DNA of 64,000 bases from Eledone cirrhosa (Eukaryota), in the NCBI GenBank assembly GCA_964016885.1, contig OZ024743.1:121706001-121770000 (forward strand), read 5' to 3'. The first letter of the stretch is position 1, and each line of letters starts with the position of its first letter. A program made the translations under genes and the position numbers. Shown here one piece after another: positions 2,659 to 41,016 of the stretch. The notes beneath the pieces were generated by a model. That model was not told the DNA's origin. It worked only from the letters and a program-made list of their open reading frames with translations, and made no database searches.

Positions 2659-3255
2659 TACATACACATATATATACACACACACACACACACAACCATA
2701 CAAATACATACATATATATGTATATATATATACACATAGACTAGAGTATGTATGTATATATGTGTGTGTCTATACGTGTGTATATAAAGATAAGTTGAGT
2801 ATGAAAATGTATACACATGAACGCGTATGTATGTACATGAATACATGTGTGTATATATATATGTATGCATGTGTATATGTATGTAAGTATGAACATGTTA
2901 CTATGTGAATGTGAGTATATGTATTTTGTAGAGGTGTGCAAATATGTTTGTGTGTGAATGCGTGGGCGAAAGGAAACGTACACTTGAAAGAAAAATTTAA
3001 GTCTGAATGTTAATTAAGTGCAAACACAAAACCAACCACGCGAATCTTTACTATCTCTAATCCTTCTATAGATTTAGAAAAATAACCAATAATATATTCT
3101 ATAAAAATGTCAAAACAACAGATGGGAATCTAATTACTCACTGCCACCAAAAATTCTCACTGCTATCAAAAAACCACTCCCTCAACTATTCTTCTAACAA
3201 CTTCACCCCTCCCTCCAAATATTCTCTATAAAAACCAAAGAGGTCCTCAGTAATA

Positions 3256-3376
3256 TTATTCTGATGAAATGACAGTAGATAATAACATTGAAATATTGAA
3301 TGTCTGCATAACTAATACTTTGTAGATAGCAGCTGTTTTCAGGTTATGTAACTGTTATAGAAACACGTGTCAATAA
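3256..3376 (+). ncRNA. Type I hammerhead ribozyme with a ~92-nt helix II domain
   Basis: Helix I ttatt/aataa; CTGATGA at 3261-3267; helix II base atgacagt/actgttat; GAAA at 3360-3363; palindrome CACGTG; canonical GUC triplet; followed by AATAAA and then (TA)n. Confidence 0.85.
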
Positions 3377-3565
3377 ATTCCTTTCAACTAAACTGTATCC
3401 ATTCAAATCTTTCTATATATATATGTATGTATTTGTTTCGACGGCTATTATATACATATATATATATAAAAATATATATATATATAAAAATACACATATA
3501 CACACACACTCATATATACAAAAAGTTACGTCACCACCTTAATAAAAATACACACACACATATAA

Positions 3566-29470: not shown

Positions 29471-31347
29471 AGAAATGAACAAACCTGTAAAAGGGGTGAG
29501 AGATTGAAAGATACAGTGTTAAAAATCAAATGGAGACAATGCAGAGTTTGATGTGACTCTTCAATCTAAATGAACATGTGACAACTTCTATAGTGTTGTT
29601 ACCACAATAAAACACACCCAATATAATTTGTAAGGTGTTAGTGTTGGTGTCATGGTATAATGCACCAACTACACCCTGCAAGATGGTTGGCATTGGGAAG
29701 TGCATTCAGTTATAGAAAACATACCAAATAAGGAACAAATGAGCAAGATGAAGCCACTTATCTAGTTTGGGACCATGACACCCCATCCAACCCATGCTAT
29801 CGTGGACATAAGATGATGATGATGATAGATATGTTCTTCGTGTGATATTATGTACACATCCTGGAATAAGACACAATGATGCTTGGGGACCAAACTGATC
29901 GAAATATAACGAAAATGTAAATTACATTTGATTCCACTTAATTGTATACAGAATAATTCATAAGACGTGTTTAACATCAAGTCTATGTAATACTCCCTGG
30001 TTAACTGAATATGCAAATATTCTAGCAGGAAAGATGGACGTTAAATGATGATGATAATGATGATGGTGGTGATGGTGCTGCTGTTGATGAAGATGAGTGA
30101 ATTTTAGTTAATTGTAAATGTTTTATTTTTTTTATTTTGTAAAACATTGATGAAATGTTGCATAAAATTGAACATTTTGTGAAAATTGTACAAGATTTGA
30201 TAGGATGATAGAAATAGAGTGATTTTGGAAGCTTCTGTTTTCAAGATGAGTTAAAATAACAGCAATCAATGTCAAAAGAGTCAAATGTATTCCACTTATT
30301 CTTACAATTTCAATGAATTAAAAACTATCAAAGTTCAAATAATTGTGGTGCATTTTATCCTATTTTTAATTGTGTAATAAAATTCTTCAATAAATGAATC
30401 TTCACTGAAGATAAAATTTATGAAAAAAAGATATAGTTTTGAATCAAGCATTTTATTGTTTTCATAATCGACTGAGAGTAAACCAATTAGATTTTTCATA
30501 ACCTGCCTGACCCTATTTGCTATCATTGAGTAATTCAAAGTATCTGAAAGCCATTGTGGGAATGTATGAATCTCGCTAAGCTTGGGTAATTGAAGAATAT
30601 GAAAGGGAATTGGAAAACTTCATAGGACATAAAGTCAAATAATTGGACTGGATGGAGTATAAGTAAATTATGTGTACACAGTTGTCCTAGGGAATATAAA
30701 TAACATAACAGTCATTTTCGAGACATATGAATCTGCTTTAGCAAAGGTCATTGAACAATATCAAAGTGAATTGAAAAATATCAGAAGAGATAAATCAAAT
30801 GATTGTCATACCGATAAATATATCAATAAAAACAAAAACATTTTGCAGTTAAGTAAATTATGTACACAGTTGTCTTACAGAAAGGCGTATTAACAGAGTT
30901 ATTATAGTGTAGTACAAACTGTCTTGTGGAATTTGTTCTGGTTCTCTTCAATCCGAGTTCAAATCCCACCAATGCCAACTTTGCCATTCATCCTTTCAAG
31001 GTCAATAAAATAAAGTATCAGTCCAAGGCAGTGAACTGATGGAATGGACAAAGCATCAGACAAGATCCTGTATGATATTTGTTCCAGCTCTTTGAGCTCT
31101 GAGTTCAAATCCTGCTGTGGCCCTACTTAGCTGGTTGACTTAATTCATTACATGTTTCAGCAACCCCAACTGGTCCTAAAGTGATGTTAGTAGATTTCAT
31201 TCTGTTGTAAGTACTCAAGTCAGGTTTATAGTTTGAGAATGCCTTCCTCCCTCCAATTAGTCTTTGGGGTCTTGAAATATGCCATGGGCCCAGACTTTCC
31301 ATCCCTGACTGAAACAATAATACATATCATCATCATTCTCATCATGA

Positions 31348-31566
31348 GGGTGATGGATTGGCAGTACTGGTAGAGCATTGGACAACATGCTTTGTGGTAT
31401 TTAGTTACAACTTTCTACATTCTAAGTTCAAATCCTGCCAAGGTTAGTTTTGCCCTTCATTTTTACAGGGTCAATAAAATAAAGTACCAGTAATGCACTG
31501 GAGTTGATTTTATCAACTTTCACCTTCTGCAAAAAATTGTTGACCTTGTGCCCTAAGTCAGAAACT
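31348..31566 (+). mobile_element. Nin-domain-like SINE
   Basis: ggattggcagtactggtagagc...aagttcaaatcctgcc...ggggtcaataaaataaagtacc. Confidence 0.75.
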
Positions 31567-36383: not shown

Positions 36384-36794
36384 AGGCAAGCAAGAATAAT
36401 AAGTTTTTGCCTGCAGCATATCACATAAACAAATAGTCATCTAAGGAAATCGCTCCCATACCAGCAATAAATGCAGATACTGCATCTTGAATTGTATAAG
36501 AGTAGCCATGGAAATAATTGTAATGGATAAACGCTTTATGTAATCACACCATCTTTCTTAATGTTATTCTTTTATTTATATATATATATTATTATTATTA
36601 TTATTTTTTTTTTTTTTTTTCCTCATTTCGTGGGTTGTCTCCCCTTCCCGCTCCGTGTCGCTATGATACTTCCTCAGTCAAAAACTGCTGGAATTTCAAA
36701 TTTGGCGGTCATTCGAGGTGAGAGAGAGTAACTTTACGGATATGATTTTTGACAGCGGTAAGAAATTGTTTTCTTATATCAATGTTTAAAGGGC

Positions 36795-36920
36795 TTCCAC
36801 TGATGATTTATAAGTGCCCACCTAAATATATTCTTACATGAATATATATTAGGCTTCTACATAAACTGGAAACATTCTCCCAAACTTGTAGAAAACTTAT
36901 AATGAAACAATTGTTTGGAA
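36795..36920 (+). ncRNA. Type I hammerhead ribozyme, copy 1
   Basis: Helix I ttcca/tggaa; CTGATGA at 36800-36806; helix II base ttataag/cttataa; GAAA at 36904-36907; palindrome CAATTG; GUU triplet. Confidence 0.83.
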
Positions 36921-37798
36921 AGAGAGATATACTTTAACTTTAATTATATCTCATAAAATAATACAACTGGTTTTTCCACATTATACATATTGTTAGCACC
37001 CCAAACACTTAAATTGGGTTTATAGTTTAATATAACCTAATGTTTGTTGAGTGAGATGGTTACCAGTCAGAGTTTAGCTTTAAACTATCTCTGTTATTGT
37101 ATTAAATATTTACTCTTGATTGGCCAGAGGTGTTTATTTCCAGGTACCTTATGTATTTGACTTTCCGTATTTATTACTGTTGTGAAATATTGTTGCTTTT
37201 TTGGGGTTGTAACTTCTCCGTTTTTTAGCCTAGGAAAATATTTATATATATGCCTACGTATATAATTACGGGCATATATGTATTTATTTTCTTTTATTAA
37301 TTGAGTTCTTTACACGAGGGATTAATATTGGTTTAGAAATAACTAATTAACCCGCGTGTGTTTTATATTTTACTCTTAATAATTCGGCCGGAGATTTATA
37401 TTCCCATTTGCCCTTTATAGCATAACTTTCTGCATTTACTGCGGTTATGAGAAGCGGTTCTTATTCGGGTACAACTTCTGATTTAGCCTAAGAAAATATC
37501 TATATGCGTGTGTAATTTATACAAGCATATATTTATTTTTTTATTTTCAATTGAGTTCTTAAACATGTTGGATTGATAATGTTTTCAAAAAAACTAATTA
37601 ACCCGCGTGTATATTATTTTTTTTCCTCATTTCGTGGGTTGTCTCCCCTTCCCGCTTCGTGTCGCTATGATACTTCCTCAGTCAAAAACTGCTGGAATTT
37701 CAAATTTGGCGGTCATTCGAGGTGAGAGAGAGTAACTTTACGGACATGATTTTTCACAGCGGTAAGAAATTGTTTTCTTGTATCAATGTTTAAAGGGC

Positions 37799-37924
37799 TT
37801 CCACTGATGATTTATAAGTGCCCACCTAAATATATTCTTACATGAATATATATTAGGCTTCTACATAAACTGGAAACATTCTCCCAAACTTGTAGAAAAC
37901 TTATAATGAAACAATTGTTTGGAA
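37799..37924 (+). ncRNA. Type I hammerhead ribozyme, copy 2
   Basis: Same sequence as 36795-36920; CTGATGA at 37804-37810 and GAAA at 37908-37911. Confidence 0.83.
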
Positions 37925-38124
37925 AGAGAGATATACTTTAACTTTAATTATATCTCATAAAATAATACAACTGGTTTTTCCACATTATACATATTGTTAG
38001 CACTCCAAACACTTAAATTGGGTTTATAGTTTAATATAACCTAATGTTTGTTGATTGAGATGGTTACCAGTCAGAGTTTAGCTTTAAACTATCTCTGTTA
38101 TTGTATTAAATATATATATATATA

Positions 38125-38465
38125 TCATTCATTTCATTTCATTTTACGTCCGCTTTTTCCCTGCTTGCAAGGGTGGGACGGGAACGGATTCTGGCTTGAT
38201 TTCTACAGCTGGATGCCCTTCCTAACACCAACCTCATTTACAGTGAGTGCTGGGTGCTTTTTTGCCGTGGCACTTACACAACCACTTTGCAGTGGAATGA
38301 TAGAGACCACAGTCCCTATCATCTCATTTCTACAGCTGAGTAAACTGGAGCAATGTGAAATAAAGTGTCTTGCTCAAGGAAACAACACATCACCCGGTCT
38401 GAGAATTGAACTCACAACCTTTTGATTGCAAGGCCAATACTCTAACAACTAAGCCATGTGCCTCC
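38125..38465 (-). mobile_element. Composite SINE: tRNA-like head, central domain and RTE-derived tail
   Basis: Minus-strand head ggcacatggcttagttgttagag...gagttcaattctc. Near-identical composite at 46623-46991. Confidence 0.75.
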
Positions 38466-39640: not shown

Positions 39641-40068
39641 GGTTTCTTATATTGGCACAAGGCCAGCAATTTGGGGGGAGGGGAAAGTCGATTAAATGTA
39701 CCCCAGTACATGACTGGTACTTTATTTTATCAACCCCGTAAGGATGAAAGGCAAAGTTAACATCGGCGGGATTTTACCTCAGACCGTAAAGGGGCGTAAC
39801 TCTATGCTGCAAAGCATGGTGTCCAACCCTCTACCGATACTGCCAATCCACCGCTCTAATACTAATAATAATAATAATAATAATTGTTTCTACTTTAGGC
39901 ACAAGGCCAGCAAATACCCAGTGCATTACTGGCACTTTATTTTATCGACCCCGTAAGGATGAAAGGCAAAGTCAACCTCGGCGGGATTTGAACTCAGATC
40001 GTAAAGGGACGTAACTATGCTGGAAAGCATGGCGTCTGACCCTCTACTGATACTGCCAATCCACCGCC
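39641..40068 (-). mobile_element. Two tandem Nin-domain-like SINEs separated by (AAT)n
   Basis: Family matches at 39641-39854 and 39885-40068. Confidence 0.85.
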
Positions 40069-41016
40069 CTAATAATAATAATAATAATAGTGGTGGTGGG
40101 GTGCTGCTGTTTGTATTGAAGCTGGTGGTGGTGACAGTGGTGAGTCACAAGTTGTTGCTGGTGGCAATGGTGGTGGAGTAAATATCCATAAAAATGTTGA
40201 TTTTATTGCAGAATAATGTTGGCCAGAAAAATGAGTTTCCTTCATTTGGATAGAAACTAAAAGAATGGAAACTTTCAGTTTAAATCTAGTCATGATTGAT
40301 GATTGTTTTACTGGCCAGAGCAGCTGAATATTATTGATTACTAACATTGGTGCAAAACTGCATATTTTAGGGAAGGGTTTAGTCAATTACCGAAGATGCT
40401 TCGTCCTTGAGGACGCACCCTAATTTTGACAACCAAAAATTTGAAAAAAAATAATAAACAACCTTCGGCCTCCAGGATACATGGTAGATTTTTTAGATTT
40501 ATTTTAGAAAAAAAGTAGCATCTTCGACGCCAGGAATCTCACCCCTTGTACTTGACTGAGACATTATTTTATGAAACCCAGAGAATGAAAAGCAAAGTTG
40601 GCCTTGGTACAGTTTGAACTAAGAATGTAAAAGACCATAGCTAAATACTACAGTCAAACAAACTTTAGTAACTGAATAATATTCAATTTTTTAATTTCGG
40701 CACAAGGCCAGCAAATTTGGAGGCAGGGCAAAGCCAATGAAATCAAACCTAGTACATGACTGGTACTTTATTTTATCAACCCCAGAAGGATGAAAGGCAA
40801 AGTTGGGTTTGGCAAGATTTGAACTCAGAATATAAAAAGACCATAGCTAAATATTGCAAGGCATTTTGTCCCACTCTAATGATTTGTTTCCAATTCAGCC
40901 ACCTTTAGTAACTGAATAATATTGATAACAACTCAGCTCATGACTGATTGGTTGGCAGCTGTTTAGTCTGATGGAATATTACATTATAGCTATAATAAAA
41001 CATCAATGAAAGTAGA

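Follow-up and report, generated by a model that had tools for sequence, protein, structure and literature searches.

The window analysed here, a 64,000-nt stretch of Eledone cirrhosa DNA (positions 121706001–121770000 of contig C4, OZ024743.1, in a 3.0-Gb assembly), contains a complete insertion made of one and a half copies of a 1004-bp non-coding unit, with a hammerhead motif in each of two direct repeats. Its parts are listed below in window coordinates; a unit coordinate (u) is the window position minus 36612, and u304 is the first base 3′ of the predicted cut.

36578–36620, strand unassigned: 5′ junction, consisting of (TA)n, (TTA)n and a T run
36613–38113, plus strand: complete insertion (locus L373), 1.5 units of 1004 bp, u1–1004 followed by u1–497
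36613–37109, plus strand: upstream repeat (the pseudo-LTR of this copy), with 2 private substitutions
37617–38113, plus strand: downstream repeat, ending at the fixed 3′ end of the family, with 4 private substitutions
36795–36920, plus strand: type I hammerhead 1, predicted cut after 36915
36795–36799 and 36916–36920, plus strand: helix I of hammerhead 1, with CUGAUGA at 36800–36806 and GAAA at 36904–36907
Helix III of hammerhead 1, plus strand: palindrome ACAAUUGU, followed by the GUU triplet
36807–36903, plus strand: branched helix II, 97 nt, with a basal stem, U.U at its base and two hairpins (predicted three-way junction)
37799–37924, plus strand: second type I hammerhead (hammerhead 2), matching hammerhead 1 throughout, its predicted cut falling after 37919
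36916–37919, plus strand: cut-to-cut monomer, 1004 nt, 31% GC, with DNA copies at L043, L282 and L289
37090–37116, plus strand: internal copy of the 3′ terminus; 24 of its 27 nt agree, in register, with the pLTR end of the autonomous Penelope family D
37098–37622, plus strand: old internal duplication of about 255–260 bp (37098–37371 against 37359–37622, 70%)
37224–37293, plus strand: strong AT-rich predicted hairpin (z −7.1, 150-nt window)
38094–38113, plus strand: fixed 3′ terminus, the putative RT start site
38110–38125, strand unassigned: remnant of the (TA)n target at the 3′ junction

The original prediction had described two direct repeats of about 490 bp lying 1004 bp apart. At this spacing we found repeats of 497 bp that differ by six substitutions (36613–37109 against the copy 1004 nt on), and the slightly wider interval 36610–37112 is 98.4% identical to 37614–38116 across 503 nt. 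The predicted repeat length thus holds for the window copy but not for the family, among whose copies the 5′ ends vary. The 5′ boundary of the insertion falls within a T run, with an uncertainty of about 8 nt, and no target-site duplication was discernible at the insertion. Both repeats read TTCCA-CTGATGA-(97 nt)-GAAA-CAATTG-TT-TGGAA, with CTGATGA starting at 36800 and 37804, so that an intact core per repeat and predicted cuts after 36915 and 37919, 1004 nt apart, were borne out in the sequence. The element was also said to lack a long ORF; its longest stop-to-stop frame has 71 codons and its longest ATG frame 48.

Several other features of the window were noted in passing. Positions 36692–36708 read TTTCAAATTTGGCGG, a candidate internal promoter element that we presume to resemble the CHR/E2F cell-cycle promoter pair. 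SINE-like abundant repeats flank the element (38113–38250, 39668–40836 and 30932–31534), and a weak match to a tRNA model lies at 38399–38456 on the minus strand. Two more Penelope-type hammerheads, with helices II of 36 nt and 92 nt, are located at 1982–2046 and 3255–3377, in repeats that are present at other loci too.

We examined the hammerhead by comparing homologues. The core CUGANGA...GAAA...UH is present with helix I open, as in type I ribozymes of the Penelope type. In an alignment of 16 sequences picked for diversity (14 distinct; 10 from the window family and 6 from its sister family C, described below), 94.6% of cells were paired and 9 of 32 pairs had changed on both sides, as compared with 0–2 in slid controls. 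Such two-sided changes occurred at least once in each of the five helices, including 7 of the 25 pairs in the three helices of the branched helix II. The covariation represents few independent events, since it comes mostly from the single split between family C and the window family. Covariation in homologues had been named as a check on the prediction, and these comparisons support the view that the hammerhead is real, with helices I–III apparently kept by compensatory change. A hammerhead model search, suggested at the same time, came out otherwise: an Rfam scan gave nine matches, all to miRNA or tRNA models below the gathering score and none to a hammerhead, a miss that the long helix II likely explains. 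The usual G10.1–C11.1 pair is absent, being U.U in the window family and A–U in family C, and the U.U at this position speaks against activity. Penelope families A, B and D (see below) also have U.U where helix II begins, and the same U.U is described for axolotl HHR_Amex2, a cleaving ribozyme (PMC7229834). The palindrome of helix III has a predicted self-duplex energy of −6.4 kcal/mol, and hammerheads with a palindromic helix III are reported to require dimers (PMC4209133). The active monomer fold (−21.9 kcal/mol) lies 6.9 kcal/mol above the predicted minimum (−28.8 kcal/mol), which likewise counts against activity, and the predicted fold of a circle does not form the ribozyme.

The element belongs to a large family. 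A 17-mer spanning the cut had 2,428 exact matches genome-wide and the 3′-end motif had 2,318, with none for the reversed 17-mer or for the control of the 3′ motif; the unit, whose copy number had been singled out for checking, is therefore not single-copy. Queries with the repeat and with the middle of the unit returned 2,365 and 1,564 first-look candidates, which are not copy numbers, and the 40 scored for each were 96–100% identical. The family is young, and the earlier suggestion of recent activity is supported. Copies are spread across many contigs, with no further one within 10 kb on either side of the window. Their 3′ ends fall at u493–500. Among 87 distinct sites of the 3′ motif, 70 were terminal, and all 70 were followed by (TA)n; the other 17 were internal and ran on into the unit (15 called by script and 2 by eye). 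The 5′ ends, by contrast with the fixed 3′ end, lie anywhere from about 40 nt to 3.1 units away from it, and some copies carry inverted 5′ arms. Tandem pairs numbered 13 among 100 listed matches of the cut-site 17-mer, and two complete ribozymes were present in only 10 of 85 insertions; most copies are dispersed and truncated, and the longest arrays reach 2.9–3.1 units (L376/L417 and L403). We dropped the idea of a hard upper length of about 1.65 units, which would have implied a fixed transcription start, as arrays of 2.3–3.1 units exist. Taken together, the fixed 3′ end on (TA)n, the variable 5′ truncation, the partial tandems and the inverted 5′ arms make it likely that the window copy is a 5′-truncated non-autonomous Penelope-like element, that is, an animal non-LTR retrozyme.

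Older subfamilies, at 75–85% identity, have a unit of about 740 bp that lacks the extra internal duplication of about 255 bp seen in the unit of about 1000 bp, and this old duplication likely enlarged the unit from the one size to the other. Secondary clusters of 5′ ends at u594–626 and u836–955 (window positions about 37205–37240 and 37450–37570) coincide with two homologous AT-rich hairpins of the duplication. Sister family C, with 1,260 candidates, has a 707-bp unit that is 70% identical over u179–500 and shows the layout of the window family; no ORF was seen in its unit. Family C copies (L327–L356) carry a GUC triplet and a longer palindromic helix III, and form tandem arrays at L342 and L354.

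The original prediction had a Penelope RT copying the element, and had proposed looking for linkage to a Penelope ORF. Such linkage was not seen: none of 50 GIY-YIG loci examined, of at least 150, was an autonomous element sharing the unit. The insertion architecture does argue for mobilization by a Penelope-type RT. The best helper candidate from sequence comparison is family D, a Hydra-like family with 2,889 candidates and RWR, DKT and CxCX5C motifs. The end of family D matches the fixed end of the window family at the 24 of 27 nt noted above, a value reached only by D-type ends in 559,082 positions (next best 20); a longer alignment scored 54, against a shuffle maximum of 62. A hammerhead-like motif in the family D pLTR (L370:5120–5160) has CAGAAGA instead of CUGANGA in the copies seen; this young autonomous family may thus carry either a variant ribozyme or one that is no longer active. 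Family B has helix III and the triplet in common with the window family. L186, considered as an ORF-bearing element sharing the 3′ end of the window family, proved to be two insertions, one of the ORF family B and one of the non-coding family C. Long GIY-YIG frames at L171 (938 aa), L172 (an 844-aa frame) and L173 (1096 aa) represent further Penelope families, and the RT of L171 was confirmed by Pfam.

We then addressed where the copies begin. The first 100 listed matches of the 3′ motif, all on contig C1, were merged to 86 insertions, of which 85 were analysed, L111 being left out for its non-standard 3′ end. On the first pass, 12 of the 74 copies reaching the site had their 5′ ends at u304–322 (expected 1.5, Poisson P 8e-8, or about 6e-6 once some 75 windows are allowed for), the upper bound u322 having been picked post hoc with the data already seen. 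By contrast, none of the 62 copies that pass the cut ended in the 19 nt just upstream of it, u285–303. On the second pass, 3 of 17 ends fell at u304–322 (P 0.005); a separate second-pass count of 11 of 28 was set aside because the score cut-off coincides with that interval. Half of the clustered first-pass ends (6 of 12) map to u315 rather than u304. The TA run at u315 holds 9 of 74 ends, whereas 13 other TA runs together hold 13 of 652 (Fisher P 1.2e-4), so that TA microhomology alone is insufficient as an explanation. Structure alone is likewise insufficient, since 0 of 34 ends lie just 3′ of the stronger hairpin at u612–681. The ends at u315 might reflect trimming back to the nearest TA microhomology.

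A junction pattern searched genome-wide gave 47 matches, and 31 for its control, so each match was checked individually (44 as loci and 3 from a 35-mer). Fifteen start exactly at u304 on flanking sequence (two of them likely duplicates), and one fold-back centred on u304 accounts for two more. Another two are compatible with u303 and nine with u302; the remainder were 15 mutants inside intact ribozymes and 4 chance matches. The pattern is blind to junctions farther upstream. For the u302-type ends, untemplated addition of nucleotides and uncut templates are both conceivable sources.

Copies also end at the cut. A search for u286–303 with any base but T after it yielded 16 matches, comprising nine point mutants, one deletion, two short unexplained cases and four matches, at three loci, in which the unit joins family A. 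Family A encodes an RT and GIY-YIG, with a CX4CxxC linker and a CCHH motif identified by eye, and is Neptune-like by the criteria of PMC8557442. At all three loci, u303 is joined to the first base after the predicted hammerhead cut of family A. At L043 (C2:399.52 Mb), one monomer, u304 to u303, is followed by a 3′ piece of family A and folded back at u304. At L289 (C4:146.10 Mb), one monomer starts at u304 on (TA)n and is joined to a family A 3′ piece. At L282/L367 (C2:377.42 Mb), the monomer lies within the hammerhead cut of a 3.2-kb family A copy with RT and GIY-YIG, 96.5% identical to L174, and both junctions are exact. Every chimera junction can slide by 2 nt, as both ribozymes end in TT; the crossovers retain the helix III of each family, and all fall in this 2-nt cut window rather than in the shared ATGAAA upstream. 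The three monomers are 91.5–96.6% identical to one another, and that of L043 is 98.0% identical to the window copy. A 99-row tree does not group them together, and a single clade was rejected (p-AU 1.6e-5, with the bootstrap not fully settled), which indicates at least three independent joining events. The 3′ regions of family A and the window family showed no similarity above shuffles (35, against a mean of 37), so that the chimeras do not show family A to be the usual helper.

These junctions bear on the proposal that a 1004-nt monomer is released. From the cut-to-cut DNA copies at three loci, we infer that a linear 1004-nt monomer RNA existed: monomer ends this exact would fit a doubly cut linear RNA, and a circle or an uncut RNA would give no reason for both. 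That part of the proposal stands. Ordinary copies, however, are not monomer copies; 62 of the 74 run through the cut, and their cDNA would start at a fixed site 194 nt downstream of it. Uncut or re-ligated RNA would thus be the main template. The predicted cut is the exact place where some copies begin, stop or meet another element, which makes it likely that the ribozyme cuts there in the living germline.

Some further junctions were observed. At L281 and L291, an 18-nt stretch equal to u286–303 stops at the cut and gives way to unrelated sequence; these cases are chance matches or further chimeras with other partners. Among family A loci L419–L448 (30 examined of at least 120 matches), 17 have a junction within 5 nt of the hammerhead cut of family A itself, under a pattern that selects for cut-site junctions and is without a control position; 11 are inverted or fold-back, 2 are short tandem duplications, 3 lie on flank and 1 is an internal deletion, and the other 13 loci are point mutants. 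These junctions suggest ribozyme cuts as the points from which the 5′ inversions of Penelope elements arise. On contig C12 (19397018–19397052), a poly(A) run stands directly 5′ of the 3′ cleavage piece of family A, possibly an mRNA end joined to the cleavage piece.

We regard it as quite probable that this is a dispersed non-coding hammerhead family, likely non-autonomous and Penelope-like, whose ribozyme likely cuts its own RNA in the germline at the predicted site. The cycle would begin with plus-strand transcription through a copy of 1.5 or more units. Two hammerheads would pair, in keeping with the known chemistry of those with a palindromic helix III, and a minority of the RNAs would be cleaved after GUU, with 2′,3′-cyclic phosphate and 5′-OH ends as the predicted result. 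A Penelope RT/endonuclease acting in trans would nick (TA)n and start cDNA at u497, as the fixed 3′ end on (TA)n suggests. The pattern of 5′ ends shows that synthesis mostly crosses the ribozyme site; roughly one passage in six halts at the cut or a little 3′ of it, as would be expected if the template ended there. On at least three occasions, a free monomer would have become joined cut-to-cut to family A Penelope sequence, as the sequence of the products indicates, either by RtcB-type RNA ligation or by RT template jumping. Template jumping, as in R2 elements, gives an identical DNA product. We lean slightly towards ligation, because L282 would demand two exact jumps, and give jumping a substantial though smaller chance. 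RtcB has been reported to circularize retrozyme monomers with cyclic-phosphate and 5′-OH ends in vitro (PMC7229834) and to join U6 to L1 RNA ahead of retrotransposition (PMC6789731).

One could suppose instead that the same non-autonomous Penelope-like element carries a ribozyme that is inactive in vivo, that RT stalls at the folded hammerhead, and that the chimeras are template switches at the shared TT between ribozymes of similar fold. Read-through of the site in most copies, the many clustered ends at u309–322 just 3′ of helix I and an active fold that is not the predicted minimum all agree with such a scheme, as does the report that an anole Penelope inserts in vitro without cleavage (PMC11167929). 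Stalling, however, does not account for 15 junctions exactly at u304, which lies within helix I and not at the 3′ base of the helix, nor for the lack of ends just 3′ of the stronger u612–681 hairpin; and the crossovers keep their own helix III, sit in the 2-nt cut window and avoid the shared ATGAAA, with both junctions of L282 exact. We consider an inactive ribozyme improbable. It is very improbable that the repeats are no more than a tandem duplication of local origin or the pseudo-LTR of some autonomous Penelope. Penelope pLTRs do bear such hammerheads (PMC4209133), and GIY-YIG elements abound in the genome, with 10,596 first-look candidates. In the mapped loci, however, what precedes u1 is either the non-coding unit or flanking DNA unrelated to it, the unit is absent from the 50 GIY-YIG loci, and copies occur on many contigs with none in the 10 kb to each side of the window.

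A stronger version of our explanation, and one compatible with it, is the classic retrozyme cycle, in which the monomer is circularized and all ordinary copies are rolling-circle cDNAs of the 1004-nt circle. The arrays of 2.9–3.1 units speak for it, as do 20 rare variants common to both repeats of a locus across 43 tandem pairs and the six differences in the window, which are private and imply repeats that were likely identical at birth. For the plus-strand circle the predicted folding energy is −253 kcal/mol, as compared with −197 ± 6 across 12 shuffles and −203 for the minus strand, with four flanking windows folding within about 1 SD of their own shuffles, and RtcB circularizes other animal retrozyme monomers (PMC7229834). 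Yet a closed circle has no end at u304, where 5′ ends accumulate; uncut tandem read-through or gene conversion yields the same patterns; and only 15 of the 43 pairs have a within-locus distance below that to the nearest other repeat. A single linear master copy would be indicated by differences at particular positions that set upstream repeats apart from downstream ones; such differences did not exceed counts of 2–3. We judge that the 1004-nt monomer is perhaps a little more apt to circularize than not, and find it rather doubtful that all ordinary copies descend from circles. Returning to the cleaving, non-autonomous Penelope-like element, we tentatively suggest, with confidence short of even, that RNAs of the Penelope family are coupled in the germline through hammerhead cut ends serving as universal joints: a monomer would be ligated, likely by RtcB, into the cut RNA of another element and brought into the genome by its RT, and the same cut ends would nucleate the inverted 5′ arms that are typical of Penelope insertions.

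In its general organization, the family is retrozyme-like, as had been proposed. Animal non-LTR retrozymes likewise consist of units in tandem that are non-coding and contain one type I hammerhead apiece, with a GC content below 45% as here and a proposed Penelope helper (PMC7229834; bioRxiv 10.64898/2026.07.22.740005), and the latter source argues that animal retrozymes are non-autonomous Penelope derivatives. They differ in that their RNAs are given as 170–400 nt (same sources), against a 1004-bp unit here, and in that the window family consists mostly of dispersed truncated copies with a 97-nt branched helix II. The unit is larger than a few hundred bp (1004, with relatives of about 740 and 707), and size is descriptive rather than defining. 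To call the element an unusually large animal retrozyme was an overstatement, given the older subfamily of about 740 bp and vertebrate retrozyme consensuses of 51–972 bp under a maximum pipeline period of 1000 (bioRxiv 10.64898/2026.07.22.740005). The same preprint tried nine predicted Xenopus retrozyme dimers in vitro and reports no cleavage for eight of them. Plant LTR retrozymes share the interval of about 1 kb between hammerheads in direct repeats, but have a type III ribozyme, true LTRs, PBS/PPT and a 4-bp TSD, whereas the window family has a type I ribozyme, variable repeats and (TA)n junctions; no type III hammerhead, fixed LTRs or 4-bp TSD was found in it.

There are further parallels with Penelope-like elements. 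Those of the Neptune and Hydra clades are described with the same partial tandems as pLTRs, 5′ truncation, inverted 5′ arms, (TA)n targeting, no clear TSD and palindromic helix III (PMC8557442, PMC4209133); the (TA)n targeting seen at all 70 terminal sites is that of Neptune, Hydra and Naiad. Unlike the Neptune and Hydra elements, the window family lacks an ORF, and no parent pLTR was found. The Anolis Penelope PAc shares a fixed RT start internal to the unit, AT-rich targets and uncut RNA as the chief substrate (PMC11167929). For PAc, that report describes no reads ending at the cut and cleavage as unneeded, whereas in the window family genomic junctions mark the cut to the nucleotide. The RtcB chimeras of U6 and LINE-1 bring together the same predicted cyclic-phosphate end and a retrotransposon 5′-OH end before retrotransposition (PMC6789731). 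Unlike these, both ends here would come from hammerheads of two mobile families, with two junctions in one event, and the ligation is putative.

The element itself is an ordinary, slightly large retrozyme; the apparently new part is the junction record of cleavage and of cut-to-cut joining. A literature search covering titles and the beginnings of abstracts found no earlier report of such chimeras or cut-site junctions. In this reading, the genome records the position of the cut, the existence of a free monomer and the joins between cut RNAs of two families. Whether such ribozymes cut in the germline becomes testable by junction counts in any assembled genome with such elements, and the exact chimeric RNA junctions to seek are now named. 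If true, joints between cut ends would amount to ribozyme-defined cut-and-paste recombination of RNA, giving retrozymes a second route of spread and allowing Penelope elements to swap modules.
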